31,626 bases of DNA. Origin: Rhizaria sp. SCN 62-66. Its lineage: Eukaryota. Within the stretch, counting starts at the first letter, position 1. Each line of letters begins with the position of its first letter. The notes beneath the pieces were generated by a model. It was not told where the DNA came from. It worked only from the letters and a program-made list of their open reading frames with translations, and searched no databases. The DNA is taken from contig MEDY01000163.1 in assembly GCA_001724265.1 (NCBI GenBank), positions 62,001 to 93,626 on the forward strand, read 5' to 3'. The position numbers and the translations under genes were made by a program. Shown here piece by piece: positions 3,001-28,400 of the stretch.

Positions 3001-6000
3001 ATGGGAGCATATCATGGAGAGTGATGGAATTACGCCGGAAACTGACGCGCCAACAGCAATCACATCATTCCTGCCCTCTCCTGGAGTCACGCCCAAAGTA
3101 CCCTCGCGTGTGCAAGGCAAGGGGCATCGTACCACGAGGCGTAGGGTTGCGAAGTCGGCGATTACCGAGGTGAACTCAAGCAGCCCACTGCCTCCCCCTG
3201 TTTCACCCCCAGTTGGAGAGGACTCGACACCAGTTCCGAGTGAGCTCGTTGATGATGTTTCTGATGAGATAACAATAGTGCAGTACGATGTTACGACACC
3301 GCTACCACTGATTGTGTCACAATCCACTCCTGAGCCAAGCACGTTAACATCACCGCGTACTCCCGCAGGAGTTGCTCTTGGTGCAGTGCCAGTCACCGAC
3401 TCAGCACACAGGTCTCCGCTCGCAGTGCGTACTGATCATATTGCACACCGGATCCTCGCTCCAGCCAGCCCAAGTTTACTGTACGGTTTTAAGCTTGATT
3501 CTGACCGTGCTTCTTTTTCTTCGCTCCCATCCTGCGCGTTCAATCCTGACACGCTCACACGATCATACTCAGCCAACAAGGTCGGCCTGGGCCAGCCAGT
3601 TCTTGAGACTCCCAGGCTGCCGCGTGCGAGCACTCTTGTCGTCCTTGGCGCCACGCCAGCGGCCGGACCGCAACTCTCGTTCAGTGGTTCGCCAATCGTT
3701 GGAAGCTTGAATGCAATGCTAAGTCACTCTCAGTTGCCTCAGCGCCATCGCGCAAATTCACAGCAGCAACCTCGTTATGGGACCCAGCCTAAAGCGCGAG
3801 GGACTTCGATTCTTATTCCTGCTCAAGGCAACATCCACTCTGATGGTTTTGATGTGTTTGGCGCAAATGATGAGGCGAAATGGCGCACCGAGCGCGCGCT
3901 GTTGTATGCGTTTGACGCCTCCAATATACCAGTCTTGCCGCGCGCAGGTAGCGCGGTTTCTGATCTCCGTGATTGGACCAACATTACTCGACTAAAGGAC
4001 GAATCAACGGATCTTGACTTTGCTCAAAATGCGTTGGTGGAGCCTGGTAGTGATGAAGACGTCCAGGGAGCAACTACTGATGTGGCGCCTGCAAAGGCAA
4101 AAGACATTGCGGAAGGTGAGGCGAACAATGCTAGAGTTATGGCTGATTTTGCCAGTGCCACGGATGTTGGCTTATTAAGGAAGCATGACCAAAGTCTTAA
4201 TACCGGCAGCACAGGCACCAATGATACTCCTAAGAGCAACGAAGAGACAATGAGCTCCCTTCCGCAGTCAAAGAAATCTCGAAATTTGACTGCTAAGAGG
4301 AACATTGACGCAATGTTTTTTGAGGATGACGGCGAGACAACTGACGACCTGCGCCAGTACGGATTGAAGGTGGCATTCGATGAGTTGCGGGGATCTCGAT
4401 TAATCTGTGACGACTACACACTTGAGATGGAATACCTGATGGACAACGCTGATGCTGTCGCTGGAATCTATGCCGCAGAGTGCGAGTTTTCCACGCGTAC
4501 CGCTGTCCAAGGCTCAGTGACTCACACGGAGTGGACAAAGCAGTTTGAGGACTACCGCAATGATTCAGGCGACTTTGACGACGAGCGCATCAAGGCAGAC
4601 GCCGCTCTGCGCATTGACACCGCTGCATCAAGTTCGGATCTTGCAAACATATTACAAAGTGCAGCAGATATGCACAACGCATTTTCAGTTATGAGCGAGC
4701 CCATCGAGACGGTGTACGAAGCGGAAGTGCTGCGCGAACGCACTATTCGTTATGAACGCGCTGTTGAGCGTGCACGTGCGTACAAAAAATTGATGTGGTA
4801 CATTGCCACTTATGGTGACAACGAAGGGACAAAGCTGTATGAGCAAAGCCAAGAGCTGCGTGCAAAGGCAACAAAGCCACGATTGACTCATAATGAGATG
4901 CGTAAACGTCTGTACGCCGCAGAGTACACCTTGAACAATGTGTTCACCGAGTTCTCCGGCTACGTTATTACCGCTACTACCGTCGTTATGTTCATGATTC
5001 ACCCCAATATTACGCAACAATTCTTCATGGTGCTGTCCTGCAAGAGTATCGGCGGCACTGCAGACCCCGGCGCTAGCTTCATGCTCGGCGACCTGAGTGA
5101 GCCATGTTACTCACCGCAACACGTGATGTTTATCCTTGTGTTAGGTGTACCAATGTTGATTCTTTGGGTACTGGGAATTCCGTTGTTTGCGTTTGCAATT
5201 CTGTTTCGGAATCGCGCGCTAATTCAAGCACCAGCCGTCGGCACGTCTGACATTACGCGCGCTCAAAAGAGGAACTTTGAGTCACAAATGGCCTTTATGT
5301 ACCGCGGTTACAAGCCTACCCGGTACTATTGGTTCCTGAGCGAAATGTTCCGTAAGGCAGCATTGGTTGCAATCTCCGTCTTTTTCCCAGGTGCGCTACA
5401 TACGCAGCTTATGCTAGCGTCACTTCTGATCTTCGTTTGTATTTTATTGCAGATCTTCGGTCAGCCGTTCGAAAATCGCATTCCTGGTGCCGTGGAGTTC
5501 CTGTCACTGGGCACCTCATTCATGATCTTCTTCTTGGCAAATTTCCTTTTTGTGGACACAATATCGCACTCAGCAAAGGTTGCTGCAACCATGCTTATCT
5601 GTGTCCTTGTATTTGCCTTCTTTGTCGTCGTTGTCATTGCATTTATTGTGCTGCAGCGCGAGGAACTCAAGCTCGCCCCGTTGCGCCGCCGTTTACGCGA
5701 AGCGTACATTCACGGCCACGATATCGCGCAAGTCATGGCAAAGTGGCGCCAAGAGAAACTCCGGGAGAGGAAGCTTGCGCTTGAAAAGAAAGATCGTGCT
5801 GGTCCTGAACGTCTACCCGATCCCACCGTCCGTGATTCAGCCGTGGAAATCAAAAACAGTCCTGTTGATGTGACAGATAAGAAGCCGCATGCACGAGCTT
5901 TAGCTCATGCTACCCCGATCAGACTCCAGAATGAAACGCAGAACCATGTGATAAGTTCTGTGGACATCGGCAGTATGAGTAAGTCTGTTGCGCGTGGCCA

Positions 6001-6262
6001 TGACACGCTGTTGACAACAACATTCCACGGCCCCACCGCTTGGTCACGCACAATTGATGAGATTCGAGCACAATCTAACAATGGCGCAAGCACCACGCAT
6101 GCAACCAATGCAATTGGTGGTGGTGGGAGTCCGGCGACAGCTGCAATCGACGCTATTGCAGGTGCCTGTGAAAGGCGAAGGGCGATGAAACGCAATGAAA
6201 ACCCCGAGCTTGTAGTTCAGCTAGACTACAACGAAGAAGGCAACGGTGATAGAACGCCTTAA
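2..6262 (+). CDS. Large multi-pass membrane/surface protein, 5'-partial: IPT/TIG-like Ig domains, GCC2/GCC3 (ephrin-receptor-like) Cys-rich repeats, Cys-rich stalk and multi-TM region
   Basis: The frame is open to the window edge (gca gca agt aaa gag ctt gtg), so the GTG at 20 is probably not the real start. TIG-like motifs: 'LTVTGSGF...VIISGRQC...LTCLLP' and 'IALNGRNFG...VMVGGQNC...ITCTTPPG'. Repeated 'CxxCxxGxF/Y' units at ~1345-1750, then 'CLRGHTGNLCAVCEPGY'. Hydrophobic helices at ~2460-2840 and ~4960-5650, with 'FMYRGYKPTRYYWFLSEMFRK'. Stop TAA at 6260-6262. Confidence 0.88.
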   Translation, partial: AASKELVPGNTAGGQRIHFTVRSGVGLVTPFFSAVRYSNPDKMLYQDPELLLYECTEVEAVRATSVAEAAAGFSFYDVSCALSAGQGASLYLSVQYCVAVYGQAEPDCSRWNSNWQGTQAPDDLLHRDVNEGLRVTYPMPAFVRASLSSITPSGLTQRTSDYVSLTSLGEDVIMSVDNFYLKRPKLIAVSYGEGRDDSDFTYVCEFNLGIALLYSDTVLALSCRTQDGVNRIDLRFKLCIAGRCTISTDRYSYPQIPEVTSVTGCAVDDIVNGRTSECPTDSAGVRLTVTGSGFLEPLSVIISGRQCSAIDRHNNTYLTCLLPSSAGVGLPITIKAGSQRAESRNRITYTGPTITSIEGCDYVSNAEIRECHRLGGNTIALNGRNFGVTASTVMVGGQNCLNVTHDKFRPHERITCTTPPGSATERSVTLLQRSGLMSIDNILLSYVQCTPGMYGLDVSCLPCKVGYFNDMWSQNSCRQCEPGLYANKTGSTSCSICPAGYSSGLGAHTCQPCARGTFSGERSGSCLQCPPGTFAQHEGSSACEACALNAESNDDYTFCRCSVGSYLETNGECVACMLGGDCRVPGTTVFNVKSLPGYAPAVIRYARDSVIRMSLYYPASTATEEARKYARAAVSKLLYDNSELPMERIVFVDVIFETEGTLRAAANASAAASYNVSYRDMYAERIRYKIKSSLHDPRADDELVAVVKVDIYPDLRGAYAVANSTEALYTRILDQLVFNAILFGKSSNQTASTLTSDCVTRDVSFNHFATPEFELCINNACSGSNICLRGHTGNLCAVCEPGYGKSSSYECKRCNEPALRTFLLVLAVVAAIVVCGVLVWKQIIDGKQSMNELPAPAVPMLLKITTSGLQVMSIASRYELAWPGFLAGVFNAADTAGGVGTAFLSLDCFLSDSPTIRPFWVTTICIMILPLAGVLVPMGVFVPMYFTARNRYRANLIAEAVAERALAAEALIELRSLERQDRQATMQQRQKKMIVDSGLIWEHIMESDGITPETDAPTAITSFLPSPGVTPKVPSRVQGKGHRTTRRRVAKSAITEVNSSSPLPPPVSPPVGEDSTPVPSELVDDVSDEITIVQYDVTTPLPLIVSQSTPEPSTLTSPRTPAGVALGAVPVTDSAHRSPLAVRTDHIAHRILAPASPSLLYGFKLDSDRASFSSLPSCAFNPDTLTRSYSANKVGLGQPVLETPRLPRASTLVVLGATPAAGPQLSFSGSPIVGSLNAMLSHSQLPQRHRANSQQQPRYGTQPKARGTSILIPAQGNIHSDGFDVFGANDEAKWRTERALLYAFDASNIPVLPRAGSAVSDLRDWTNITRLKDESTDLDFAQNALVEPGSDEDVQGATTDVAPAKAKDIAEGEANNARVMADFASATDVGLLRKHDQSLNTGSTGTNDTPKSNEETMSSLPQSKKSRNLTAKRNIDAMFFEDDGETTDDLRQYGLKVAFDELRGSRLICDDYTLEMEYLMDNADAVAGIYAAECEFSTRTAVQGSVTHTEWTKQFEDYRNDSGDFDDERIKADAALRIDTAASSSDLANILQSAADMHNAFSVMSEPIETVYEAEVLRERTIRYERAVERARAYKKLMWYIATYGDNEGTKLYEQSQELRAKATKPRLTHNEMRKRLYAAEYTLNNVFTEFSGYVITATTVVMFMIHPNITQQFFMVLSCKSIGGTADPGASFMLGDLSEPCYSPQHVMFILVLGVPMLILWVLGIPLFAFAILFRNRALIQAPAVGTSDITRAQKRNFESQMAFMYRGYKPTRYYWFLSEMFRKAALVAISVFFPGALHTQLMLASLLIFVCILLQIFGQPFENRIPGAVEFLSLGTSFMIFFLANFLFVDTISHSAKVAATMLICVLVFAFFVVVVIAFIVLQREELKLAPLRRRLREAYIHGHDIAQVMAKWRQEKLRERKLALEKKDRAGPERLPDPTVRDSAVEIKNSPVDVTDKKPHARALAHATPIRLQNETQNHVISSVDIGSMSKSVARGHDTLLTTTFHGPTAWSRTIDEIRAQSNNGASTTHATNAIGGGGSPATAAIDAIAGACERRRAMKRNENPELVVQLDYNEEGNGDRTP

Positions 6263-10503: not shown

Positions 10504-10910
10504 ACTGAAGTCGGAACTAAAACATGATAACCACGTATATATTGACACAATAAAGTGGGCCATACGTTTTTATGTGGAAAACCCGTAATAGAGGCGAGAT
10601 ATACTCGTTTTAGTCTGCTGTGACTGTGGGCTTGTGCGCGACGTCGCTCTGCTGAACAGATCCGACTATCCGACCGAGTGGGGCAAGCACGCCAGCCAGA
10701 TTTTTTGAAATGCATAATCTCTGTCCCTTTAACATCAAGTGCGTTGAATTGACGATATTAGTGATTTAATTTTTACAGTATGCCCTTTTTTCTTTTTCTC
10801 ACCCCGATAACATGTTGGGAATGCTTCCAAATCTCACTCCTATCCACGTCGCTCCTTTCTCCGCTGCATGAACTTGCCCCCGCCTCACCGCTTCCAGGTA
10901 CACGCGCCCC

Positions 10911-13447
10911 ATGACGGCCCCGTCGTCGCAGTCGCGCGCCGCCCCCAACACCGCCGTGGGCTCCCCTGCCACGGGCGCCGCGCCCCAGAAGAAGCAGCCG
11001 AAGCGCTCTGGCGGCGGCTTCGGCCTGCTGACGGCGCTGACGGCCGCGGCCGCGATCGTGGCGGCCGTGCTGCTCAACGACGCCGTGCCCGACGCGCTGC
11101 TCACGCTCGCGGGCGGCAGCGCCGCGCCCGGCGGGCTGTTCCCGCGCGCGTTGCCCCCGCTGGAGGCCAGCTACCCCAAGGTGTTCCCCACGCACACCGT
11201 GGTTGGCGCTGTCGAGCGCGAGGAGTGGAACCCGTCCAAGCCGGTCGCGGCGCCGCTGCTCGCGGGCGGCAAGGCTAAGGTGCTCTCTAACACCTTCGTC
11301 AAGGACTGGGCCGCGATGAGCAAGTGGGATTTGTATTCCGCGTACTTCCCCGCGCGCCTGCCGCCCGTGCTGACGAACATCTACCGCGGCGCGACGCCCT
11401 ACTTCGGCCCGCTGTTCCGCCCCCACAAGCCCATGTACAAACAAGGCCCCAACGTCACCAAGTGGCACAACCCGCACGAGATTGTCCACATGGACACCAA
11501 GACGTTCTTCAACCGCGTCTCGGGTCGCGTGCCCCCGACCGAGCCCGAGGATGGGAAGCGCACATGGCTCTACTACACCGGCGACCTCAACGCGCCCTTC
11601 CTCTCCAAGTACGTTCATCAAAACACGACGCATCTCTCCTATTAAATGCTTATCGGGAAATGAGTATTCAATTTCCGTTTAATTTCGTATTATAAATCCG
11701 TTTGTAAAAGATTTCCATGCAGCAATCCAATCCAATCTAATATCATTTATTGCCTTTTTTTATTCTCGTTCTTACACTCTCTTGATATGTCAACAGGGAC
11801 CTTGAGCCGTGGCGCGAGCTGATCCCCCGCCCCGAGGGCCAGCGCATCAACGTCTGGGTCTCGGACAAGGGCGTGACGACGCACCTGCACATCGACGGCT
11901 TCGACAACTTCTTCGTGCAGATCCAGGGCACGAAGCGCATGCTTCTCTTCCCACCCGAGCAGAGCGTCAACTCGGGCTTCTACCCCTTCACGCACCCGTC
12001 CTTCGGCCAGTGCCACGCGCACCTCCCGGGCACGCCCACGGTTGCCAAGTACGCCAACGAGCCCTCGGCCTACGCGCCGCCTAACCGGGCCTTGCTCGCC
12101 GTCGCGCGCGCCGTCAAGGCCGCCTCGCTGGCCGCCAAGCGACAGGTCCGCCTGCTCCAGACCGCAATCGGCGGCGCGGTGAGCAAGGCGCTGGCGGCGC
12201 TGAACCTCGACGCTGCGGCGAGCGCGGACCCGGCCACGCGCGCCGCCGCGGCTGCCGCCAAGGCTACCGCGACAGGCGCCACCGCCAAGGACGCCGAGGA
12301 GGCGAGCGCGGAGGAGAGCTTCCTGAGCGACATGACCGCGCCCTACGAGCCCATTTACCGCACGCCCAAGTGCAACCTGACCGACACGACGTACCCCTCT
12401 GCGGCAACGAGCCAGACGATGGCGGGCGAGGCGGCGCGCATCCCGGCTGCGAAGCACCTGCAGGGCTACGAGGTGCTGCTCAACCCCGGGGACCTACTCT
12501 ACATCCCGCCCAACTGGATGCACTACGTCGAGACGCTTACCCCCTCCATCTCGGTCAACTTCTGGACGCAGGTATGTCAGGGCGCTTGCGCATCCATCGT
12601 AAACAACAGGATTGGACTGCTATAATAACATTGAATGCCTCTTCATTTCACTGAGCTCACTTTTTGCTGTGATATCATCTTTTGTTCTTTTGCTGTTCGT
12701 TTGTTCCCTCTACAGGCGCGCTCGCAGCCGCGCTACGACGCGGCGATCCGACTGGTTGTGAGCCACGCTGTGCACGACTGGACGCTGAGCCAGAAGCGTT
12801 TCGCCGTCGCGCTCATCCTCAACGGGCTCCTCACTGAGCCCAAGATCTCGGCCGCCTTCCCCGTGCTGGGCAAGACGGACGTCGCGCGCGCCAACAAGAA
12901 GTTCGCCTCGCACGGGACCAACATCGTCGACTTCGACGCCGACGACGAGGACAGCGACACGGTCGTCAAGCGCTTCATCAAGCAGCACGTGCTGTCTCGC
13001 TTCGAGCCTCTCATTGCCAACGGCGAGGCCGCGATTAAGGCCGCCACGCTCGACGACTGCGGCTTCGACTCCGAGCTCTCGATGCCCGAGTCCAACGCGC
13101 GGTCGCACGCGCAGCTGCTGCAGCTCGTCGGGCTGATTCCCGCTGAGGCCGCCGCCGAAGCCATGGCGCAGGCCGAGCTTGAGGACGCCGGCTTCGACGA
13201 GAATGGCCGCCGCATCAACCCCAACAGCGACGCCAAGATCACCATGGACAAGGTCTACCGCGGGCTGGGCGAGCTGGCCGTCAAGATCGCCAAGGAGTTC
13301 GTCCAGGTGCCTGCCCGCGAGCGCCATGTGTGGGTGGGCAACTTCGCCGAGTCTCTGGCCTACTGGGCGTCGGACCCCGCGGGCGAGCAGACGGCCACCG
13401 TGCTCCACTGCCTCGCCAACTTCAAGGTCGACGTCTCGCGCAACTGA
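10911..13447 (+). CDS. JmjC/Cupin_8 family Fe(II)/2-oxoglutarate oxygenase, join(10911..11608,11797..12571,12716..13447), 734 aa
   Basis: The spliced frame is continuous. Motifs: '[36 protein letters not shown]' (HxD) and '[32 protein letters not shown]' (distal His). N-terminal hydrophobic segment [19 protein letters not shown]. Confidence 0.92.
11609..11796 (+). other. Intron 1 of the JmjC gene (188 nt, phase 2)
   Basis: AA|GTACGT ... pyrimidine tract ... caacAG|G. AT-rich; removal restores the frame (SK-DLEPW). Confidence 0.9.
12572..12715 (+). other. Intron 2 of the JmjC gene (144 nt, phase 0)
   Basis: CAG|GTATGT ... ttgttccctctacAG|GCG. Contains an in-frame stop; removal joins ORFs 11873 and 12635 in frame. 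Confidence 0.9.
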
Positions 13448-13859: not shown

Positions 13860-14787
13860 CTTGGTGACAGTAGTACGTAGTACGGATTAAGCTCGCATTT
13901 GTCGTTTTTGCAACGTGCTAACGCACGAGAGACTTATCAGGCCAACTTAACACGATCACCTCTGTGTGTCTCAGTACAGTATCTAGGTGACGAGGTGTCA
14001 ACAAGCAAAATCCGGGTGATGTTCACGCGTTTATGAAGGATTTTAGAGTGGCTATTTATACTTACAGGTATGCATGTGAATTTTGAGTAGTATATAATAA
14101 AGCGGATTATTATATACTACTTTTGATTTTATGTCTGTTCATTTCAATTCAGCTACCTTGCGGAGTTCAAATCACTTTTACAATTAAGCAGCGTGACTGT
14201 TCAAATGCAAACTTGAGTTCATATATATTAATAACGATTGTTGTATGTAAGAATAGTATACGCCCGGGGCAAAATAGACAACTTTGAGCTTTGACACGAT
14301 AAAGCACACTCAAGCGATGCCGAGGTACATGTAAATAATATAAAACTTTCATTGTTATTGATAGTAGAGGTGCAGCCCTGTGGCTGATACCTAACTTCTG
14401 ATAACCTATTTTAATTTTCTAATAACAGCGTTTGTGTGGTGCATGCTATGAAAGCAGAATAGCAACGAGTCCTTATAACACACCAGAGTTGTGTCGTTTG
14501 AAGTTGCGAGGGCATAACAGTGAGCCGAACATGCAACACTCGCACCAAAGTGAGTGTTCGTTGTCCTCTTTGTTTAATCACTGCTCGCCAGAGCAAACAC
14601 AATGCTTGTTTGTGAGTCTATATCGGCCATGATAATTCAGCAATCAGCCACACGCTATGACTAAGACTGCAACTGCGTTCGTCACGACTATATGACTGAT
14701 TGGCAGTGATTGTGTGAATCCCTCAGAGCTCAGCAGCGACCCGCGCCACCCGTGAGCCTTGCGCGCGCTTGCCTGGCGCCGGCGCGC

Positions 14788-16546
14788 TTACTTGGTGCGC
14801 TTACGCGGGGCGAGGATGGGCCTGCCAGCAGACGACACCTTGCCCGCCGTGCCCAGGTTGAACCCCCCGGCCGCGGGGCCGCCGAAGGCCGGCGCGGCCG
14901 CCACGGGCCCACCGAAGGCCGGCACGGCGGCGGGGGCACCGAAGGACGCCGCGGGGGGCTGGCCGAACGTGGGCGCGGCGGCGCCGAAGGCCGGGGCGGG
15001 CTGCCCGAAGGTGGGGGGCTGGCCGAAGGCGGGGGCCTGCGCTGGGGCGCCGAACGTGGCCGCCCCCGCCTTCGGCCAGCAACCCCAGTTCGGCCAGGCC
15101 GCGCCCGCCTTCGGGCAGACCGCCCCGCCGCCGAACGCGGGCGCGGGGGTCTGGCCAAAGGTGGGCGCAGGCGCGGCCTGACCAAACGCAGAAGAGCCGC
15201 CGAAGCCGCTGGCGGCGGGGGGCGGGACGCCGAAGGCGGCGGGCTTGGCCTGGACTCCGAACGCGGGAGCCTGGGCCTGGGCCGGGGCGGGGACGCCAAA
15301 CGCGGGGGTGGCGGCGCCGAAGACGGGGGCCTGCGCGGGCGGGGGCACGCCGAAGCCCGTCGCGGGGGCGGGGGGGATGGCCTGGGGGGGAGCCGGCACG
15401 CCGAAGCCGTTCGGGGGCTTACCAAACGCAGAGGGGGCGGCGCCGAACGTAGGGGCCGCGGCCGGGGCACCGAACGTGGGTGTAGGGGCGGCGGCGGCGT
15501 TGGCGGCGTTGGCGGCCCCAAAGGTGAAGCCGGGCGTGGGGGCGGTGCCGAAGGTCGGCACGGCAGCGGCGGCGGGGGCGGGAGCGGTGGCAGGGGCACC
15601 GAAGGAGAAGGTGGCGGCCGGGGCGGCGGCAGCGGCGGCGGGGGGGGGGGGCTTGAGGCCGAACACGGGGGTCGCCGAGGCGCCCGCAGTGGCGGCCGCG
15701 GGGGGCACGCCGAAAGCCGGCGCGGAGGGAGCGGCGGGCGCGGCGGTGGCGGCGGTGGCGCCGAAGGAGAAGGTCGGGGCGGGGACAGGGACAGGAGCGG
15801 GGGCGGCGGCGGCGGGGGCGGGGGTGACGGGCTTGGCGGCGCCGAAGACGAAGCCCGCGGCGGGGGCAGTGCCGAACAGCGGCGCAGCAGCCGCTGGGGC
15901 CGCAGCCGCAGTGGCTGGGGCAGCGACGGGCGCGGTTGCGGTGGCGGCGCCTGGGGTGGCACCGGCGGCAGGGACGGGGCCGCCGACACCGAACTTAAAC
16001 GCGGCCACCACGGGGGGCTTGGGGGTCTCGGCGCCGCTGCTGGCGCTCGTCGCGAGCGCGGGCGCAGGCGTCGTCGTCGCAGTACCAGCAGCAGCACCAG
16101 CAGGGGCGGCGATGGTAGCGGCGGCGGTGCTGGGGGCAGCGAAAGAGAACTTAGGCGCGGCCGCAGCAGCGGGTGCGGCTGGAGCGGCAGCAGTCGCGGC
16201 GTCGGCGGGCTTGGGAGCGCCGAAGCTGAACTTTACAGCAGGTGCGCCGACAGCAGAAGGAGCAGCAGCAGGAGCAACAGCAGCAGCGGCGGCGGCGGCA
16301 CCAGCAGCGGCGGCGGCGCCAGCGGCGGGCTTCTCGGGGGTCGCAGGGCGGCGGATGGTGAAGGTGCGGGCGGGGGGCGCAGGCGAGTCGCTGTCACTGT
16401 CACTGCCGCCGCCGCTGCCGCCGGCGGCCTTGGCGGGCTTGCTGGGGGTGGTGCCGGCGGCGGAGGGGTTGAGAGAGGCGAGGCATGCAGAGTGCTCGAA
16501 CTCGTCCATGCCGTTCTTGCACACGGGACAGTTCTTCGGGCCGGCC

Positions 16547-16582
<36 letters not shown>

Positions 16583-19500
16583 GGCGCCGCAACAGCAGCG
16601 GCGGGGGCGGGCTTGGCGGCGCCGCCGCCGAAGGAGAACTTTGGGGCAGCAGCAGCAGCGCCGGGCGCGACAGCAGGGGCGGCGGCAGCGGTGGTGGAGC
16701 TGGAGCTGTCGGTGCTCGCGGCAACGGGCTTGGGGGCACCGAAGCTGAAGGCAGGCTTGGCGGGCGTCGCCGCGTCGCCCTCCTTGTCCTTGCTGGCACT
16801 CGCACTCGAGCTACCATTGGTCGCAACATTAGTCGTGGCAGTGGTAGTAATAGGTTTGGGGGTGGTGCCGGGGGCGAAGAACTTGAACGACGGCTTCGTC
16901 ACATCCCCGTCCATGTCGTTGTCCGCGCTACTTGCCGGCGTCGCGGTCGCGGCAGCAATGACAGTGGCGGGCTTGGCAGCGGGGGGCATGAAGCTGAACG
17001 ACGGCTGCTTCGCCGCAGGCTTGGGGCCGCCAAGCGCGACCTCCTCCTCGCTCTCCTCCCCGGCGCCCTTGCTCCCACCAGAGGCGGCGGCGCCGAAGGA
17101 GAAGCTGGGCATGGCGCGCTTCACCTGCGGCCCCGCCAGCCCTCCGCGCGCGCTCGCACTGCCAACGGGATCAGGGCTAGCGGCGGCGGCGGTCGCGGCG
17201 GTTGAGTTGTTATCCGCGGAGCGCTTGGCGACGGTGAAGAGCGACTTGGACGGCGGGGCGTCGCTGTCACTGTCAGCCCCCCCGGCGGCGGCGGCGCGGG
17301 CCTTGCCCGCCTCGCCGCACCAGCTGTGGTCGAAGTCCTCCAGCGAGTTCTTGCAGTCGGGGCACACGCCCGTCTTCTTCGGGGGCGAGTCGGGGATGTG
17401 CTTGATAGGCTTGTCGGGCAGCTGAAACTTGGGCTTGAAGCCGGCAGGGGCGGGGGCGGGGACAGCGGGGGCCGCGGCGGCGCCCGTGGTAGCGGGCTTG
17501 AGAGCGCCGAAGCTGAAGGCGGACTTGGCGGCGCTGGGGCTGGTGACGGCAGACTCGGCGGGCTTGGCCGCGGGGGCACCGAAGCTGAAGCTGGGCTTCG
17601 CAGCAGCGGCAGGGGCAGCGGCGGCGGGGGCGGCGGGAGACTTGTCGGCGGCGGCGGCGGCGGTGGCGGGGCGGGCGATGGTGAAGGTCTTCGGGGGAGG
17701 GATGTCGTCGTCGCTGGCACTGCCCGCACCAGCGGCAGCGCCGGCCTTAGCCGCAGCACCGGCGCCAGCGGCAGCGCCGGGCTTGGCGCCTGGCTTGCAC
17801 CAGCTGTGGTCGAAGTCCTCGAGGCTGTTTTGGCACACGGGGCAGTCGCCGACCTTTTTCGGCGAGTCGGGGATGTGCTTGATGGGCTTGTCAGGTAGCT
17901 GGAACTTGGGCTTGAAGCCAGGGGCAGCGGGGGCCGGGGCCGGGACAGAAGCCGTGGCGGTGGCGGGCTTGGCGGCGGGGACGCCGAAGCTGAAGGTAGG
18001 GGCCTTGGCGGCAGCAGCAGGAGCAGCGGTACTAGAAGCGGAGTCGGCGGGCTTGGGGGCGCCGAAGCTGAACTTTGGCACAGCGGCAGAGGCAGTCTCC
18101 GTCGCAGGCTTGGCAGCAGCAGCGGCGGCAGCGGGGGCGCCGAAGCTGAAGTTCGGCTTGGCTGCAGCAGCGCCAGCGCCGGCAGTCGCAGTCGCCGCGG
18201 CCGCCGTGGCCGCCGCGGCGACGGCAGCGGCGCTGCTGTTGCTGTTGCTGCCGGCGCCGGCGCTGGGCACGGCCTTGGCGAAGGTCTTGGGCGGGGGCAC
18301 GTCGTCGTCGTCGCTGCCGCTGAGGGCGAGGGCGTCGTCGTCGGAGCTGCCCGCGCCCGCCTTGCCGCAGCGGCTGTGATCGAAGTCCTCCAGCGAGGTC
18401 TTGCAGATGGCGCAGTCGCCGACCTTTTTGGGCGAGTCGGGGATGTGCTTGATCGGCTTGTCGGGCAGCTGGAACTTAGGCTTGAAGCCGGCCGGCGCCG
18501 GGGCGGGGGCGGGGGCGGCGGCCGCGGCGGGAGCGCTAGTGGGAGGCTTGGCGCCGAATGAGAACGCAGGCGCCGCAGCAGGGGCAGCAGCAGTAGTAGA
18601 GGCGGGCTTTGAGGCGCCGAAGACAAAGCCGGCGCCGGGGGCAGTACCGAACAGCGGCGCAGCAGCAGCGGGGGCCGCCGCAGCAGCAGCAGCCGCAGCG
18701 GCGGGAGCAGCGGCAGGAGAAGCGGCGCTGATCGCGACGGGCTTGAAGGTGTCCGAGCCCACGTCGACCTTGTCGCTCGCCTTACCAGCACTCGCACTCG
18801 AGCTCGCGGAGGCAACCGCGGCGGCAGTGGCAGCGGCGGCGCCCGCGATGCTTGTGCTGGTGTTGCCGACGCGCCCGAAGAGCGGCGCTGGCGCGGCGGG
18901 CAGGAGGAAACGCAGCGGCGTGCGCGCGGCCTTGGCCGAGACCAGCGGCGTCGACAGGCGCTCCAGCGACGACAGGATACGCTTCGCCGTGGACGATGCC
19001 GACGCCGACGCGGCGGCTGCGGGGGCGGCGGGATGGTTGGGGCTGGGGAGGGAAACGAGGGCGCCGGAGCTACCGTGGGAGCCGTGGGGGCCGGGGGTGG
19101 CGGTGGTGGTCTGGGGACGCGCGAACGAGCGACGACCGCCAGAGGAGCCGACGCCTCCGCTGCTGCCGCCGCTGGCGCTGTTGCGTGCGCGCGAGGGGGA
19201 GACGAAGGAGAAGGATTTGGGGTTGACCTGGAGGTTGGCGAAGACGGAGGCGCCGCCCGCGAAGGGCAGCAATAGACTAGCACCGCCCGTGGCCGCGTGG
19301 CGGTACACGATGGGCGTGTGCAGCGCCGCGCCGGGGCCCGAGCCGGCCGCGGTGGTCAGGCTCACGTCGCCGCCATCGGTCGCAGCGGCGTGGGAGCCGG
19401 CGGCGGGCAGGAAGCCCACGTGCGGATGGCGACGGCGCGAGCGCTGGGTGATCTCGCCCTCCTCCTCGCGCGCGTCGTCGTCGCCGTCGTTGTCGTCGCC

Positions 19501-19776
19501 GTGGGCGGCGCCGCCGTGCCCACCGTCGCCGGAGTCGAGGTCGAGGCGCGCGGGGGCGAACGAAGACTCGCGGGCGCGCTTGGGCCTGCTCCCGACAGCA
19601 GCGTTTGCGGTGGCAGGGCCGCCGGGCGTGCGGAGCGGCGGGAACAGCGAGGCGTACGTGGCCTGGGCCTTGGGCATCGGGGAGGGCGCGATGGGCGTTG
19701 CCGCCGCGGGGGCGGGCGCGCGGGCCACGGAACGCAGCGCTGCGTGCGAGTGGTGGAACGAGAAGGAACGGTCCAT
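14788..19776 (-). CDS. NUP153: Nuclear-basket FG nucleoporin, Nup153/Nup1/Nup136-like (1662 aa, single exon as seen)
   Basis: Many FSFG/FxFG and PAFG/PTFG repeats. 'STAKRILSSLERLSTPL' (~18943-18993) resembles the Nup153 N-terminal RILxSLEKMSSPL motif. The basic C-terminus 'GRPILAPRKRTK' resembles the Nup153/Nup1 tail. The gene symbol is inferred from these motifs. Confidence 0.82.
16483..18489 (-). repeat. Four copies of a C-x2-C-x8-H-x2-C module; three are preceded by GFKPKFQLPDKPIKHIPDSP
   Basis: CAICKTSLEDFDHSRC (18367-18414), CPVCQNSLEDFDHSWC (17797-17844), CPDCKNSLEDFDHSWC (17317-17364), CPVCKNGMDEFEHSAC (16483-16530). Confidence 0.9.
16547..16581 (-). repeat. (GCT)n coding microsatellite encoding poly-Ala in the nucleoporin
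   Basis: Run of about 11 gca units on the + strand. Confidence 0.85.
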
Positions 19777-20389
19777 CAGAGAAGCAGGAGTGACGCAGCG
19801 GTTGCTGTCGTGTGTGATGTCTTTCTTTCTTTGCTTTGTGCGCGGGTAGTAGACGCGCAGAAAGAGGGCGCGGAGACGCGGGTGTGGTTGAAAGAGTGAG
19901 GGAGTTTACAGCGCCTACTCGGGCGAGCGCTAAAGTAAAGGCATGAGTGACAGATGCGGGCAATGAGGAAGATTGGTGGAGGGCGGTTGGGACGTGAGCA
20001 AGAGTAGGACGAGGGATGCAATGTTCACGCACAACACTGTCACTAATTGAGTTTGAGTCAGATGATAAGATACTAACAAGCACAAATTATTCTAAAATAG
20101 CAAAATAATTTCAATTGGCGTTTGAATAATAGCACCAGACACTTCGCTAGATCAGCTCAGCGAGCCGCTGCGACTGCGGTTGGGAGGTGACCGTGCGCAC
20201 CGCCAGCCGTCTGGGTCGAAAAATAGTCACCGTCCACGAAGTGTCGAGCAACAAAAAAATATATCAGTTACACATAATTAAGGCAAATCAAGATTCCATA
20301 AAAGAATAACCCATCTTAGCTCATTGTGTATGCATAGCTATTTGTATTAATTCTCCAGAGTCGTATCTAAAAGTCTCGCACAGTGTGCA

Positions 20390-20412
20390 AAGATAAGAGC
20401 ACCTCTTATCTT
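20390..20412. repeat. Hairpin with a 10-bp perfect stem and 3-nt loop
   Basis: aagataagag-cac-ctcttatctt, extendable with tgc/gca after one mismatch. Confidence 0.8.
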
Positions 20413-20805
20413 CGCATCTGCTGTGCTGATCAGTAGTGACTCGCACGCAGACTCTAAGTTCGTGCGAAAACCACAAAACATGCGCTCATGATCGTCTCTA
20501 CAGGACATAAGACATCGAACGTCATTACTCTTTGCCTCTTCCTATCATTTCCCTTCGTGTTTTCGCGGCGTTGTTTAGTCACTTACGCCACTACCAACAA
20601 GAACAACAGTTAACAATATCATAGATATCAAACGCAACCAAAAAAAGAAAGCATCTTAACTTAGTAAAGCAGATACTGACGTAAGTAAAAAATAAACTTG
20701 TTATGTTGGGAACATTTCTTTAATCAAAAACAAACACGTAAGCTCTTAATATGAAATCATTTTTCACTATCTCATCTCCTCCTTCCTAATTGTTTCTCTT
20801 CAGCT

Positions 20806-23800
20806 TTAGTTGAAGCTGCTGCCGCCGTTGTTCGCCGCCCAGGCCTGGAGGCGGCGGCGCGTGCCCAGCGGCTTGATGAGCTCAGCCCAGTCGGCCTCCT
20901 TGAGCAGCAGCAGGTCCTCGGGCTCGGTGATGCCGTTCTCCTTGAACACGCCGAGGCACGTCTCGGCGCGCAGGGCCAGACACAGATCCTCCAGCGCGCT
21001 CGTCTTGCTGGCGGGCGCCGACAGCGCGAGACCGGCGCCGGAGCCCTCGCCGCTGGCGGAGGCGTTGGCAGCCGCGGCGGCGGCGGCGGCGGCGTCGGCC
21101 TCGGCCTGCAGCAGCTGCGCGGCCGCGGCGGCCTTCTTGGCGTCCTTGCTCGCGCGCTTGGCGGCGTTGCTGTTGCCCGCCGCGGCTGCCGCGGTGGCCT
21201 GAAGCAGCGCGACGACCTGGTCCGCGTTCTTCTCCTGCGCGTAGTCGAGCGCGGCCTTGCCGTCGTAGGCCGGCTTGCGCCAGTCGGCGCCACAGTCGAT
21301 GAGCATGCGGACGGCGTCGAGGCGGCCCAGCGAGGCGGCGTGCACGAGCGCCGTGCGGCCGAGCTTGTCCGTCTGGTTGATGCCGACACGCCCGAGGCGG
21401 ATGAGCACCGCCATCGACTCGATGTTGCCCCACGCCGCGGCGCGGACGAGCGGCGTGGCGCCCTCGTAGTTCTGGATGTCGACGTCGGCCTTAGCATTGA
21501 TGAGCATGGCCAGCGCCTCGTAGTGCCCGCGGAAGGCCGCCACGTGCAGCGCCGTGTTGCCGTGCTCGCCGACGGCGTTGACGTCCGCCTTGGCCTCCAT
21601 CAGGATCTGCAGGCTGTCGTGGTTGCGCCACACGTTGTTGTTCCAGTACATGGTCCGGATTAGCGGCGTGTGGCCGTGCACGTTGGCCAGGTCCACGCTC
21701 GCGCGCGCCTTGAGCAGCAGCCGCACGCAGTCCGGGTACCCGCGGTCCGCCGCGTGCAGCAGCGCCGTAGCGCCGCCCTCGCCGCGGACGTCCACGCGCG
21801 CCTTGCGGGTCAGCAGCAGCGACACGATGTCCGAGTGCCCGCCCTAGGAAAGAGAGAGAGCAAGCGAACGCAGGAAGAAAGAGATAAAGGATGGTATATG
21901 TGAGATTTGAGAAGAGTGATACATCATTGAAGTATATAGACATGAAATAAATATAAGTATACATAAAGTACAATGAAGACGTCTTATAACGTTGAGATAT
22001 CTTTGCTTAAAGCAAATGCACGTACCTGGACCGCGGCGGAGAGCGCGGTGGAGCCGGCCTCACCGAGCGCGTTGACGCTGGCCTTGGCATCGAGCAACGC
22101 GCGAACGCAGGCCAGCTGGCCGGTCTGCGCGGCGCGCAGCAGCGCCGTGGCGCCGTACTTGTCGCGGGACTCTAGCGAGGCACCGGCGCGCAGCAGGCGG
22201 GAAACGACGCTGGCGTGGCCCTGGCGCGCGGCCGCGATGAGCGGGCTCGACGTGGCGGGGCCGGCCGCGGCGTCGAGCGCCGAGCCGTCGAGCGCGACCG
22301 CGATACCGTCGACGTTGGCGCCCGACTCGAGCAGCACGCTGACCATCGAGTCGAAGCCCTGGCGCGCGGCGTGCGTGAGCGCCGTCTCGCCGCCGTCGTC
22401 GGCCAGGTCGGGGTGCGCAGCGCACTCGAGCAGGCGCCGCGCGCACAGTACGTGGTTGCTCATCGCTGTCGACATGAGCGCCGTCGCGCCGCGCGTGTTG
22501 CGCGTGTTGATGAAGTCGCGCAGCAGCACGGGCGCGTTCTGGTACCGCGCCGCCGCGTTGGACAGCGCGCTCCGCGTCAGGCCCGTGATGTAGCTCGTCG
22601 TCGCGCCCGCGTTGCTGCAGACGCCGCTGTTGTCACCGGTAGCAGAGGCGGGGAAGAAGCTACCATTGCCGCTGCCGTTGGCGTCCGCGTGGGTGGCGCT
22701 GAGACTGGCGGCGACCAGCGAGGCCGCAGCGGCCACGGTCGCGGCGGCGGCGGGCGAGGGCAGGTTCACACCGCTCAGCCCGGCGCGCGCGGTCGCCGCC
22801 GCGAGCGCCGCCGCCGACTCCTTGCTGGCCGCGGCGTCCGCGGTGGCGCCGCCGCTTGCGCCGCTGGAGAGGGGGACGAAGACCGATGGCAGCAGGGGCG
22901 CCGTGGCCGAGGGGCGCTCGCCAGAAGGCTGCTTGTTGGCCCCGGGCCCCTCGGTGGCCTCGGCCGCGGCGGCGTCAGCTGCGGCATCGGCCGCGTCGGC
23001 CGTCACGGACGAGCCCGAGAGAGTCGCCGTGGCAGTCGCTGCGGCCGAGGGCGGCTGCAGCGGGAGCCCGGTGGCGGGGGCGCAGTTGCTCGAGCTGGCC
23101 GCGGCGACGTTGGCGGCGTGCAGCGCGGCCGCGGCGGCCGTGACAGACTCGGACGTGATCGAGTTCTTGCGGCGCCGCTGCCCGCCGTCGTACGTGGGCG
23201 CGTTCTCGGCCGCCTCATTTTCGGGCTCCTCCTCGTCCTCCACCAGAAGCGCGGCGGCGGCGGCGGCGGCGGCGGCCTTGGAGCCGCCCTTGTGGTGCAG
23301 GTTGAGGCTCGACTTGGAGCGCGTCATCGTCAGCGCGCCGAGGGACCCCGCGACCGCGCCGGCGCCAGAGGCAGCAGTGCTGGAGCTCGCGCTCGGGTCA
23401 GCAGAGCCGGCGCCGGGGGCGGCGGTGGCGGTGTTGGCGCTGGCGCCGCGGGCGCTGGCGGCCGACGCCGCGCCGCCGCTGCTGGCGCTGGGGACGAAGT
23501 CGGACTCGTAGCCCTGGAGGATGGCGAAGACGTGCTCCAGCAGCTGCTCGGGAGTCGCGGCCGCGCCCGCCGTCGCCGCGGCAAAGGGCGCGGTGAGGGC
23601 CGAGGAGGAGGACGACGACTGGCCGGCGCCGTTGCTGAGGGTGGCGAGGCCGGAGATGTTTGCGGCGAGCCCGGCCTTTGCGGCGACGACGAGCAGCAGC
23701 TGTTGCGCGACGCCGTCGTTGCCGTTCTCGCACGCAAAATGCAGCGCCGTGTTGCCCAGGTCGTCGCGCCGCGTGCAGTCCGCGCCCTCGCGCAGCAGCA

Positions 23801-25380
23801 GCGCCGAGCAGCGCTCGAAGCCCGCCTTGGCGGTCGACATCAGCGCCGTCGTGCCGAACCGGTTGACCGTGTCGACCTGGGGCTTGGGCGAGAAGCTCAA
23901 CAGCAGCTTGACGCAGCGCACGCGGCCCTCGCGCGCGGCCAGGATCAGCGCCGTGGAGCCGAACTGGTCGGGGTAGTCGATCCAGTGCCGGTGCTCGCCG
24001 CGCGCGAAAGCGCCGTAGCCGGCCCCGTTGCGCAGCCGCCCGCGCGCGAGCTCCAGCGTGAGCGCCACGTGGTTGCCCGTGACGGCCGCGCGGCGCAGCG
24101 CGGCGCAGTCCTCGGTGGCCCGCTGCAGCAGCGGCTGCGCCACGGCGCTCGTGGTGCGCCGCCCGCCAGCGCTCCCGGCCGCGGCGGCGTTGGCGGCGGT
24201 GGCCGCGGGCGCGGTGAGCGGGCCCGCGGTGACCGAGGGCGCGGCGGCGCTGGCGAGCGAGAGCCCGCTGTACGCGTTACCGCCGCTGCCGACGGGCGCG
24301 CCAGCGGTGTGGAGCAGCGGCATGGGCACGAGCGAGGCCACCGAGGCGCCGCGCGAGAAGGCCGGGGGCGCGGCGGCCAGGAGGCGGCGCGCGGCGGCCA
24401 CCGAGGAGCCGGCCGCAGGGGCCGCAGCGGTCAGCGCGGTCGCCGCCGGGGACAGCGCCTGCAGCGACAAGGCGCCGTTGCCCGCGCTGGCGGCGTTGGC
24501 CGAGGCGGCAGCGGCTGCGTTGTTGGTGGCGAAGAGCGAGGCGAGGGGGATGTAGCCGAGCTCGATGGCGATGTCGCGCGCGGACCGGCCGTCGCAGTCG
24601 CGCAGCGCCTCGTCCGCGCCGTGCGCCAGGAGCACCTGCACGATCTCGTAGTGGCCGCCCGCCGCGGCCATCATAAGCACGGTGCGCCCTGCCAGGTCGG
24701 TGTGGTCCGCGAAGGCGCCATGGGCGAGCAGCTGCGTCACGCAGTCCATGTTGCCCCAGGTGGCGGCGCGCATGAGCGCCGTGCAGCCCTCGACGTCCTG
24801 GAGCTCGACGTCGGCGCCGACCTGCAGCAGGCGGCCCACGCAGCGCGAGTGCCCGCGGGTCGCCGCGATGATCAGCGCCGTCGAGCCAGAGTGCGACTGC
24901 ATGTTGACGTCGGCGCCGGCGGCGAGGAGCAGGTTGAAGGCCTCCTCGTTGGCCCACTTAGTCTTGTTCCACACCGTAGCGCGCATCAGCGCCGTCTGAC
25001 CGAACTGGTTCACCAGGTCGGGCGCCGCGTTGGCGTCGAGTAGCGCGCGGACGACGGCGCCGTGCCCGCGGTCCGCGGCCCACATGAGCGCCGTGGAGCC
25101 TTCCGAGTCTTGGAGGTCGGTCTGCGCGTGGAAGCGAAGCAGCATGGCCACGCCGTCCAGGTCGCCGATGATGGAGCACACGATGAGCGGCGTCGCCATG
25201 TCGCCGTCGTAGCCCTCGGGGACGTCGCTGGGCCGCAGCATCACGCGCTCCTCCTCGCGCTCCGGCGCGGCCTGCTCCGGCTGGCCCGACTGCTGCTGCA
25301 TGGCGCCGCTGGGCACGAGCGCGCGGGGCGAGGCGACGACAAGGGCGGTGCTGCTCGCGTCGGCGGGACTGCCATTGCCG

Positions 25381-25424
<44 letters not shown>

Positions 25425-28400
25425 GGCGTCCGCCGAGGAGGGGGTGATAGTGATGGGGAGTAGGGCCTTGCTGGCACTGCGGACATGCCCGCTATTAGCA
25501 CCCGAAGCGTTGTTGTCGTTGTTGTTGTTGTTGTTGCCTGCGCCGGAAGTGACGGGGCGGGCGCGGGACAGCTTCTGCGCCTTGAGCAACGCGGTGCTGT
25601 CGGCGGCGCGGCCCTTGAGCGTGGCGATCTTGCTGGCCGCGGCGGCAGCGTCGTCGTCGTCGTCGTGCGCCGGGCCCATGTGCTCGTCGTCGCCCGTGAT
25701 GCTGTCGTCGTCCTCGTCGTCCGCGTGCGACCGTGTCGCCGACAGCGCGGGCGTCAGCACAGACGACTGCTGCTGCGGACCGAGCCCGCCGCGCGCGCCG
25801 CCGGCCTGCCCCGGCTGCTCGCGGTCGCCGTGGCCGTGCGTGTGGTCCGCGTCGGTCGTCCCCACGACACGCTCGTCGTGCGCGTCCGCGCCGCCGGACT
25901 GCATCAGCACCGCGGCCGTGGCGGCGCTGACGGCGACCGCGTTGCCGTTGCCCGACGCCTCGCGCGCGCGTGGCAGCTGCGACCCAGACCCAGTGGCACC
26001 AGTGGCGCTTGAGGCGAGCGCGTGGGGCGGCGGCGGCGGCGGGGGTGCCTTGCCCTTGGCGAAGATGGTCGCGCGCAGCTTGGCGGCGCCCGACGCGAAG
26101 GCAGCCTTGGCTGTCGAGGGCAGCGGGCGGCCGACGCGGCGCGTGTCGGGGTCGGCGCCGTGCACCAGCAGCAGCTTCATGCAGCGCACGCGCGAGTACT
26201 CGGCGGCGCGCAGCAGCGCAGAGCAGCCGAACTGGTCGCGCAGATTGAGCAAGATGGCGAGCTGCTCCGAGATCTCGCCGATGGCCACGTGCGCGGCCGG
26301 GATCAGGATGGTGTTGTTGTTGGCCTCCATGCAGGCCGCCGTGTTGATGCTGCCGTCGCTACCCAGCGCGTTGTGGCCCAGCGAGCCGTGCAGGTTCGTC
26401 GACGTCTGTGACAGCGAGAAGGACAGCGACGGCGAGCAGGGCGTCGCCACGCCGCTGCACGTCGGCTCCAGACGCGGCGTCGCGTCGTTGTGGTTGCCGT
26501 TGTTGTTGCCGTTGGGGCAGGGGCTGTAGAAGGCGTTGCCGGCGATGGCGGCGTGGCCGTGGGCAGCCGCTGCCGCTGCGGTAGTACTGGGCACCGCGAG
26601 CGAGTTGTTGGCCGCGCCTGGGGAGCGTGCGGCCCCGCCCATGGGGGCGGCCGAGCGCGAGTGCGCGAAGAGCGTTCTCCCGCCCGCGCCGGCGTCGTCG
26701 TCGTCGTCGCTGCCATGGTCCCCGTCATCGTCGTGCTCGTGCTCATCTCCGTGGTTGTCATCCGCCGACGCAGTGCCCTCCAGCAGCGAGGGACGCCCGC
26801 CGCCGCTGACGGGGGGCCGGCCGGCCACGGCGCTCAGCCCGGCCGTGGCGGCGGCGGCCTTGGCGGCGGCGGCGGCGGCCGTGGCGGCGGCGGCGGAGGA
26901 CAGCGCAGCCATCCGCGCCGCCAGCGCGTGCGCGCTGCCGCCGTTATTACCACTGCCGCTCCCGGCGGCCCCCGCCCCCGCCATAGTAGCGCCCATGGCG
27001 GCGGCCGCGGGGCCCGTGGTGGAGTGGCGCGGCAGCGAGCCGGGCAGCGGCGGCTTACCCAGGTCGGCCACGGCCGCGACTGCCGCGGCTGCGGCGGCGT
27101 TGGCGCTGGCACAGCCGAACCCGTTACCAGTACTGCCAGTGCCAGTGCCAGGGGCGGGGAGCGGGAAGGCTCCCGGCGACCCAGGGCTATGCGTGCTCGC
27201 GCCCGTAGCCATCATGCCGGGGGTGATGCTGCTGGAGCTGTGCGTGAGCGGCGTGAAGGTCATGCTGGTGAGCGCGGGCCGGCGCGCGGGGGCGCCGCGG
27301 GCCATGGTCAGCGTCGCGGGCTGCGTCGTGCCGCGCTGCAGAGCCTTGCGCTGGCGCTTGAGCGCGCGGCGCTGCGCCTTGGGCATCGCCGGGTCCAGCG
27401 GGTCGAGCCCCAGCGCGGCGGCCGCGGTGCGCAGCGCGGCACGCTTGCGCTCCATCTGCTCGAGGCGCGCGCGCGAGTGGTATTGCTTGGCCATGGCCGA
27501 GATAAGCAGCGACGCAGAGGCGGTGTTGCCGCGCACACACGCCGACAGCAGCGGCAGCGACGACGTGGGCAGCTCGCCGTCGCGGTCCGCGCCCAGTGTG
27601 CCCAGCGCCAGCGACTGCGCGCGCGAGAGTAGCGCCTTGACGACCTTAGCGTGGTTGCCCGTCGCGGCCACCGAGAGAGCCGACTCGATCTTGTCGTTCT
27701 TGTGGCCTGCATCGGCCTTGGCGTCAAGCAGCAGCTGCGTGACCGTGGCGTGTCCGTGCTCGGCCGCCAGCAGCAGCGGCGTGTTGCCCTGCTTGTCCAC
27801 GGCGTCCGTCGCCGCGCGCGCCCCGATGAGCACCTGCACGCACGCGTTGGCGCCGCGCTCGGCCGCGTAGTGCAGCGCAGTCAGCCCCAGGTCCGAGCTC
27901 TTGTGGGCGTCGGCGCCCGCGGCCAGCAGCGCGGTGACGCAGCCCGGGTGGCCGTTGCGCGCGGCAGCGATGACGGCCGTGACGCCGTAATGGTCACACT
28001 CGTTGGGGTCCGCGCGCGCGGCGAGCAGCTCGTTGACGCAGTCAACCCAGCCGCCCTTGGCCGCGAGGATGAGCCCTGTCATGCCGTAGCGGTCGGGCAC
28101 CGAGGGCGACGCGCCCGTGTCGAGCTCGAGGCGCAGCGCGTTGGCGTCGCCGGTGCGCGAGAGGAAGCGCACGCGGTGGTTCTTGCTGATCTGCTGCGTG
28201 TAGGGCACCGAGCGGTCGATGATCTGGTAGAAGGGCTGCCGGTTGATCGACGCCAGGTAAGGTCCCAGCGTGTACTTGTCCGTCAGGCGGTCGTGCTTCT
28301 TCAGGATCTTAAGGAAGGCCATGTAGTTGAGCTCGACGTAGCATCGCAGCTTGTCGTTGAGCGTGTTAGCCGACTCGAACAACGACAGCACCTCGGCCTG

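Follow-up and report, generated by a model that had tools for sequence, protein, structure and literature searches.

An apparently undescribed C2HC zinc-finger-like module in a probable Nup153-like FG nucleoporin of an uncultured microbial eukaryote

Zinc fingers of nucleoporins are usually treated as an animal feature, present in Nup153 and Nup358, with the NUP149 protein of trypanosomes as a recent oddity. Fingers of the RanBP2 type have four cysteines, a tryptophan two positions before the first of them, a loop of ten residues and the string N-x6-C. Here we describe a gene in a stretch of 31,626 nucleotides from contig MEDY01000163.1 (positions 62,001 to 93,626 of the forward strand; the whole stretch is called the window below, and positions are counted from its first letter). 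The encoded protein, P0001, is probably a phenylalanine-glycine (FG) nucleoporin of the Nup153/Nup1 kind, and it carries four copies of a short Cys2-His-Cys (C2HC) motif with the spacing C-x2-C-x8-H-x2-C, apparently members of an undescribed family of mini zinc fingers.

Lineage-specific zinc fingers in an FG nucleoporin have a published precedent in T. brucei NUP149. It is described as a protein of three nearly identical repeated domains that each combine putative zinc fingers with a few SxFG/FxFG repeats (PMC4758718), the fingers being predicted as four cysteines on three beta strands, unlike the fingers of NUP153 or NUP358 (PMC11825100). In the same accounts the protein is cytoplasmic, belongs to the NUP76 complex and shows heavy biotin labelling by Ran-TurboID (PMC4758718, PMC11825100). 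Compared by these descriptions only, NUP149 has the layout closest to that of P0001, since both consist of repeated units that each combine a lineage-specific putative finger with FG repeats, and the fingers of both are unlike those of Nup153 and Nup358. They differ in that the NUP149 fingers are described with four cysteines and those of P0001 are C2HC, and the side of the pore probably differs as well.

Outside animals, yeast Nup1/Nup60 and plant Nup136/Nup1 are homologues of Nup153 (PMC8421043) and, like P0001, disordered FG nucleoporins. The likeness of P0001 to vertebrate Nup153 lies in an N-terminal motif of the Nup153 model, several zinc-finger-like modules in the middle of the protein, an FG-rich C-terminal part and a basic end. 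The fingers of vertebrate Nup153, however, are clustered four-cysteine RanBP2 ribbons, whereas those of P0001 are C2HC with 2-8-2 spacing and are spread among FSFG repeats; P0001 also stays below the cut-off of the Nup153 family PF08604, and no PF10599 was found in it. To our knowledge the yeast and plant proteins have no zinc fingers, whereas the members of the P0001 family have two to four. A C2HC ligand set is also described in the nuclear-pore-associated ZC3HC1/Pml39 proteins, with the signature G-[WYF]-X-C-X2-C-X(>14)-H-X3-C-X-[WY] (bioRxiv 10.1101/2022.09.10.507405). There it is part of a domain of several beta strands and an alpha helix, as far as that description goes, and the P0001 module spans about 20 residues.

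When P0001 was scanned with the pattern C..C.{8}H..C, exactly four matches were found (Table 1), which hold 12 of the 14 cysteines of the protein, and none of 20000 shuffles of its sequence contained even one match. A six-frame scan of the whole window gave five matches, the four fingers and an unrelated one, taken as a chance occurrence, that lies just beyond the gene in low-GC DNA at 14562-14609 (+). The four motifs and their cores lie exactly where a first-pass annotation, made from the letters alone, had put them, and its range, 16483-18489, runs from the last cysteine of finger 4 to the start of the pre-finger motif (GFKPKF...) of the first repeat unit. The order it had given is also borne out, with the Nup153-like motif first, then the fingers and then the PxFG tail. 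It had further placed the fingers in the stead of the RanBP2 block of Nup153, and this part did not hold, as they form no contiguous cluster and are distributed over repeated units together with FSFG repeats.

Fingers 1 to 3 each lie inside a repeated unit of 160-190 amino acids (aa), in which a Pro/Lys-rich pre-finger motif (GFKPKFQLPDKPIKHIPDSPKK) is followed by the finger, an Ala/Gly linker, an acidic run reading SDDD or DSDSD, the string PPPKTF and two to three FSFG repeats. Finger 4 belongs to a more diverged fourth unit that has no pre-finger motif. Over 43 codons, units 1 to 3 differ from one another by 6-8 synonymous and 6-7 replacement changes, and the replacements fall only at variable positions that are not ligands.

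To find relatives, a profile of the four fingers was searched against 1.84 billion proteins and gave six matches at E ≤ 0.001. After full reading, three of these (P0004, P0005 and P0006) were counted as real relatives with two fingers each among FG or FxF repeats, and P0006 carries in addition an RILSSL motif and ends in a basic C-terminus. P0002, P0003 and P0007, the remaining matches, were judged spurious, being Arg- or Pro-rich tandem repeats without FG context. Since this profile was built from P0001 alone, the true range of the finger family may be wider. The pattern C-x2-C-x4-E-D-x-D-H-[ST]-x-C was also scanned, at the DNA level, over metagenome contigs; the 34 loci obtained comprise five with the finger (L016, L024, which is the contig of P0005, L025, L029 and L033), 12 with another small Cys/His-rich protein and 17 that look like chance. 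The full architecture of Nup153-like motif, FSFG repeats, two fingers and PFG-rich tail is present in the open frames of both L029 (1425 aa, 27 FG) and L033 (1265 aa, 26 FG), where every finger is trailed by QEELNGG and then by an acidic tract.

Further searches added no relative. A word-indexed protein search with the finger alignment returned only P0004-P0006 again, one with P0006 returned only P0006 itself, and one with aa 1-1150 of P0001 gave no match among 8000 candidates because low complexity swamped the words; a search for related loci matched 99 pattern stretches, none of which was confirmed. The relatives of P0001 were found only among metagenome-derived records.

Together, 17 fingers are spread over eight open reading frames (ORFs), and 16 of them have the exact 2-8-2 spacing. 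Their consensus reads TGD-CPVCG-x2-(L/M)-E-D-x-D-H-(S/T)-x-C, usually with an acidic tract next to it. Among the 16 exact-spacing fingers the four ligands are invariant and the neighbouring positions vary: the residue before the histidine is D in 15 and E in one, D stands three before it in 14, E four before it in 12, and S or T follows it directly in 15, while the fourth residue past the second cysteine is L, M or F in all 16. In the 30 residues after the finger, acidic residues outnumber basic ones in 13 of the 17 cases.

The comparison of L029 with L033 showed how closely these modules are held. With low-complexity sequence masked, the two proteins gave only five alignments at E ≤ 1e-5, four between fingers (87-91% identical) and one in the Nup153-like motif (86% identical over 28 aa). 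The two fingers of L029 share 30 identical residues, their codons differing by nine synonymous and no replacement changes. Between L029 and L033 the fingers differ over 30 codons by 15-18 synonymous and 4-6 replacement changes, and the Nup153-like motif over 28 codons by 17 synonymous and 4 replacement changes; synonymous changes thus far exceed replacements in number, and purifying selection acts on the finger family. No other evidence speaks as strongly for the finger being a functional module as the fact that the fingers and the Nup153-like motif stay fixed while the remainder drifts; the copies noticed in the first-pass annotation are members of a real, conserved and selected family.

The assignment of P0001 as a nucleoporin, proposed at the same time, draws support from its FG content and from a sub-threshold match to PF08604 (gathering cut-off 25 bits). 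P0001 holds 43 FG dipeptides, 12 of them FSFG and 19 PxFG, the former all in the middle of the protein and the latter nearly all within the last ~330 residues. Scanned alone, aa 221-320 of P0001 scored 16.7 bits on PF08604 (E 0.0034, profile positions 192-219), and the motif piece of L033 scored 22.4 bits (E 6.2e-5, profile positions 193-224), so the same part of the profile is matched in both proteins, and the motifs themselves are identical at 12 of 17 residues. A language-model feature search placed P0001 nearest to Atlas clusters of Nup153 and RanBP zinc-ribbon (Zn_ribbon_RanBP) proteins (score 0.86), which is a lead only, and a search of PDB sequences with the Nup153-like motif piece returned a single row at chance level. 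On this basis P0001 is probably an FG nucleoporin of the Nup153/Nup1 kind.

We then compared the finger with described families. In Pfam, first 7 and then 13 single fingers were scanned with matches reported up to E ≤ 10. All matches stayed below threshold and belonged to various CPxC-knuckle families, none of which was matched by more than 4 of the 13; UBZ, LYAR and CCHC-knuckle models were not reported for any of them. Profile searches of PDB sequences at the same threshold gave 6, 26 and 18 rows with a best E of 0.011, and the alignments shown cover the first knuckle and a few residues, never the His-x2-Cys part. The earlier proposal that the finger belongs to no described family has therefore stood, since none of the 13 fingers rose above any Pfam cut-off and no match to a PDB chain extended over all four ligands. 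The module departs from the ZC3HC1/Pml39 BIR-like signature in its loop of 8 and its His-Cys gap of 2, and neither PF07967 nor PF08600 was reported for it. Its 2-8-2 spacing is likewise not that of the retroviral-type CCHC knuckle, C-X2-C-X4-H-X4-C as quoted in bioRxiv 10.1101/2022.09.10.507405, and zf-CCHC was not reported. A full-text literature search returned no paper with the spacing string of the finger, and in the literature on nucleoporins, C2HC zinc fingers and FG repeats we found no description of such a finger.

On the reading that we find the most convincing, and consider rather more probable than its opposite, P0001 is an FG nucleoporin of the Nup153/Nup1 kind in which knob-like zinc modules serve as docking sites. 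The central part of the protein would then be made of repeated units, each joining FSFG repeats to one module of ~20 residues, C-P-V-C-x3-(L/M)-E-D-(F/V)-D-H-(S/T)-x-C, that would fold round a single zinc ion held by two ligands from the Cys-x2-Cys knuckle and two from a helical turn with His-x2-Cys. Given the three acidic residues just before the histidine and the usual acidic tract, the module would form a small, rigid, negatively charged knob within an otherwise disordered FG domain. At the pore, such knobs, like the Nup153-like motif, may serve to dock a soluble partner that is itself conserved. The analogous cases of Nup153, Nup358 and trypanosome NUP149 would make Ran, in our view a tentative candidate, the first choice of partner. 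Ubiquitin or SUMO, bound in a UBZ-like mode, ranks after Ran and seems an unlikely partner. Because the module is acidic, binding of nucleic acid is improbable. The likeness of the finger to the RanBP2 fingers of Nup153 and to the NUP149 fingers is, in our reading, one of role and not of sequence.

Structure prediction was made for two finger pieces. AlphaFold2 gave a mean pLDDT (predicted local distance difference test) of 67.5 and no secondary structure for a 43-aa piece with 4 alignment rows, and a mean of 65.7, rising to 75-78 over residues 11-30, for a 39-aa piece with 7 rows, in which a three-residue helix forms at H-S-W. The 39-aa model weakly suggests a Cys-x2-Cys knuckle with the histidine and the last cysteine on a helical turn. 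Foldseek against the PDB gave no match for either model and VIA-align none among 48161 chains at Z ≥ 2, and since the models have only 39-43 residues and moderate confidence, these null results say nothing either way.

Other explanations of the module have to be weighed against this reading. UBZ4 fingers, as in RAD18 and WRNIP1, have the spacing C-x2-C-x11-H-x3-C and share with the P0001 modules the ligand order C2HC, the CPVCG start with its CPxC knuckle, and a short acidic stretch around the histidine; the modules could accordingly be shortened UBZ4-type fingers that tether ubiquitylated or SUMOylated cargo or pore proteins, and one weak PDB row, the UBZ-bearing deubiquitinase ZUFSP (E 0.5), points the same way, although only by its first knuckle. 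We consider this improbable, as 16 of the 17 fingers have the spacing 8 and 2, a loop three residues and a His-Cys gap one residue shorter than in UBZ4. Neither the Pfam scans of the 13 fingers nor the PDB searches at E ≤ 10, including the one that listed 18 PDB sequences, brought up a RAD18-type, WRNIP1-type or other UBZ family or chain. The conserved acidic residues also precede the histidine, whereas in UBZ4 they follow it. A little less probable still is that the modules are RanBP2-type fingers inherited from a Nup153 ancestor and strongly diverged, with no independent recruitment. In its favour, the place that they take within a Nup153-like protein is of the same kind, the Atlas lead named above has Nup153 and RanBP zinc-ribbon clusters nearest, and 5 of 16 fingers have an asparagine two after the second cysteine, from which six residues lead to the third ligand as in N-x6-C. 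However, all 17 fingers have histidine as their third ligand, the loop has 8 residues instead of 10, and the tryptophan two before the first cysteine is present in none of the 17, in agreement with the earlier remark that the spacing is unlike that of RanBP2 fingers. PF00641, the RanBP2 family, was reported for none of the 13 single fingers and for no whole protein scanned at E ≤ 10, a result in which the HMMER filters may hide very weak matches.

The place of the protein at the pore may also be read differently, P0001 being a cytoplasmic-face or other FG nucleoporin of the NUP149 or Nup358 sort and not the nuclear-basket equivalent of Nup153. A unit of one finger with FG repeats is the layout described for NUP149, which is reported as cytoplasmic (PMC4758718, PMC11825100), and the PF08604 match is below threshold. 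Yet the Nup153-like motif is one of the two conserved islands between L029 and L033 and scores on PF08604 in two proteins, and the fingers of NUP149 are described as four-cysteine (PMC11825100). The six profile matches, moreover, were the three FG-type relatives and the three spurious proteins, with no similarity to NUP149 detected among them. A kinetoplastid source was set aside on account of introns in the genome; P0001 as a kinetoplastid NUP149 orthologue was rejected by the probable AT-rich introns of the neighbouring JmjC gene, by the different ligand set and by the absence of such proteins from the profile matches. A cytoplasmic-face assignment is to our mind about as improbable as the UBZ4 origin. 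Least likely of all is that the Cys/His pattern binds no metal and is instead a linear motif, a redox-sensitive disulfide pair or a nucleic-acid-binding knuckle. The low to moderate confidence of the fold models would suit it. Against it, all 16 exact-spacing fingers keep the four ligands unchanged while the neighbouring positions vary, a CPxC with a following H-x2-C makes a standard set of four ligands, and the conserved acidic residues with acidic tails after 13 of 17 fingers argue against binding of nucleic acid.

The docking-site reading of P0001 as a Nup153/Nup1-kind nucleoporin has weaknesses of its own. PF08604 stays below its cut-off and was reported in two of three 100-aa motif pieces, the piece from L029 giving no report, and in none of seven longer or whole sequences; P0001 is without a structured nucleoporin domain. 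The partial ORF L025:3940-4755 (-) has two family fingers followed by a CCCH finger (PF00642, 22 bits where the cut-off is 20.5) and basic clusters, and not one FG dipeptide, so the module is a portable unit and not pore-specific. Both AlphaFold2 models are of only moderate confidence and had no structural matches. Zinc binding and the location of P0001 at the pore, including its side, are predictions from sequence, and Ran as the partner is a speculative possibility that comes from analogy; the acidic surface of the module differs from the Ran-binding face of the Nup153 fingers.

A bolder version of the reading is that an undescribed zinc-finger fold-family took over the role of the RanBP2 fingers, docking Ran or transport factors, in a Nup153 orthologue of an unsampled eukaryotic lineage, which we rate as doubtful and slightly less likely than the binding of Ran itself. 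If true, peripheral FG nucleoporins would have gained zinc fingers independently for a third time, following the animal RanBP2 and the trypanosome NUP149 types, and a finger-type docking site at the pore periphery would be a general functional need and not an animal peculiarity. A third, unrelated-looking finger in this kind of protein, held as closely as the Nup153 motif while the remainder drifts, suggests that peripheral FG domains repeatedly need small folded docking knobs, and the catalogue of minimal zinc-binding folds gains a candidate family. With only ~20 residues per module, binding of metal and of partners (Ran, ubiquitin, karyopherins) is testable with synthetic peptides.

Table 1 Features of the P0001 gene in the window
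Feature	Residues	Position in window	Strand	Basis
Single-exon gene, P0001	1662 aa	14788..19776	-	stop codon TAA
Nup153-like motif, core RILSSLERLSTPLVSAK	aa 259-286	18919..19002	-	sub-threshold PF08604 match
Repeat unit 1 (pre-finger motif, finger 1, acidic tract, PPPKTF, FSFG repeats)	aa 425-614	17935..18504	-	alignment
Finger 1, CAICKTSLEDFDHSRC, core SLEDFDHSRC	aa 455-470	18367..18414	-	pattern match
Repeat unit 2	aa 615-773	17458..17934	-	alignment, 62% identical to unit 1
Finger 2, CPVCQNSLEDFDHSWC, core SLEDFDHSWC	aa 645-660	17797..17844	-	pattern match
Repeat unit 3	aa 774-940	16957..17457	-	alignment, 57% identical to unit 1
Finger 3, CPDCKNSLEDFDHSWC, core SLEDFDHSWC	aa 805-820	17317..17364	-	pattern match
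Finger 4, CPVCKNGMDEFEHSAC, core GMDEFEHSAC	aa 1083-1098	16483..16530	-	pattern match
PxFG-rich C-terminal tail	aa ~1298-1632	14881..15885	-	positions and types of FG dipeptides
Basic C-terminal end RPILAPRKRTK		14791..14823	-	sequence

The gene as a whole has a GC content of 0.75 (0.83 at third codon positions, GC3), and both of its flanks are AT-rich DNA carrying in-frame stops. P0001 consists of 30% Ala, 14% Pro, 10% Gly and 9% Ser. The whole protein gave nothing above any Pfam cut-off, and its last 50 or 100 aa matched neither PF10599 (Nup_retrotrp_bd) nor any other Pfam family at E ≤ 10; NCBIfam, Rfam and tRNA scans gave no matches. A basic C-terminal cluster is common to P0001 and its relative P0006 (KPKKRK). 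Within the PxFG tail, an odd stretch at 15067-15129 (-), aa ~1550-1570, with two cysteines, three tryptophans and a repeated PKAGAA, interrupts the repeats; it coincides with a 21-base tandem repeat and is covered by an independent DNA run with no differences.

Two further blocks are common to L029 and L033, an N-terminal W-x-G-R-I-K-S...T-V-(K/R)-F with the look of an amphipathic helix (aa ~60-85 in L029, aa ~65-90 in L033) and RKQGLLFSPY. Neither block was found in P0001 or in the 1.1 kb upstream of it, and a search of three frames of 19701-20810 for an upstream exon with the WxGRIKS block found none.

The window has matches in bioreactor and wastewater metagenome runs of several studies, small-share runs not being used for naming the habitat, and the source is a microbial eukaryote that is uncultured and bears introns. 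Several pieces of the P0001 ORF are matched, with 0-1 differences, by contigs from a polyA metatranscriptome run. In the outermost flanking bins (14400-14593 and 19832-20200) the polyA run shows no depth, whereas a second run from that study does, which hints weakly that the gene is transcribed. Read joints within P0001 were considered as introns and rejected, since their sides are only 20-23 letters long and they also occur in DNA runs, as expected of low-complexity artefacts.

Among the neighbouring genes, the JmjC/cupin-8 gene at 11939-13447 (+) is split by AT-rich segments with in-frame stops, which are probably short spliceosomal introns, and it is these introns that argue that the genome is not that of a kinetoplastid. 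The ORFs listed downstream of the nucleoporin gene encode a 281-aa ankyrin protein (20806-21651, -), a 2174-aa ankyrin-repeat giant (21984-28508, -) and a 699-aa SPX-domain protein (28676-30775, -). An ORF at 128-6262 (+) encodes a TIG/Ephrin-receptor-like protein of 2044 aa with a GC3 of 0.52; of the nine other ORFs checked, eight have a GC3 of 0.74-0.96 and that at 10773-11633 (-) one of 0.61, which is strikingly uneven for a single contig.

Outside the window, a RecQ-like helicase ORF adjoins the finger ORF of L025. The small Cys/His-rich protein found at 12 of the 34 pattern loci (L001-L004, L007, L008, L011, L018, L020, L030, L031 and L034) occupies open frames of 89-212 aa, several of them cut by a contig end, for example L007:1279-1692 (-), and has no Pfam match. 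It carries C-x2-C-x8-H-x2-C with the core MEDGDHSxC inside a larger Cys/His pattern, and may be related to the nucleoporin finger or only have been selected by the search pattern.

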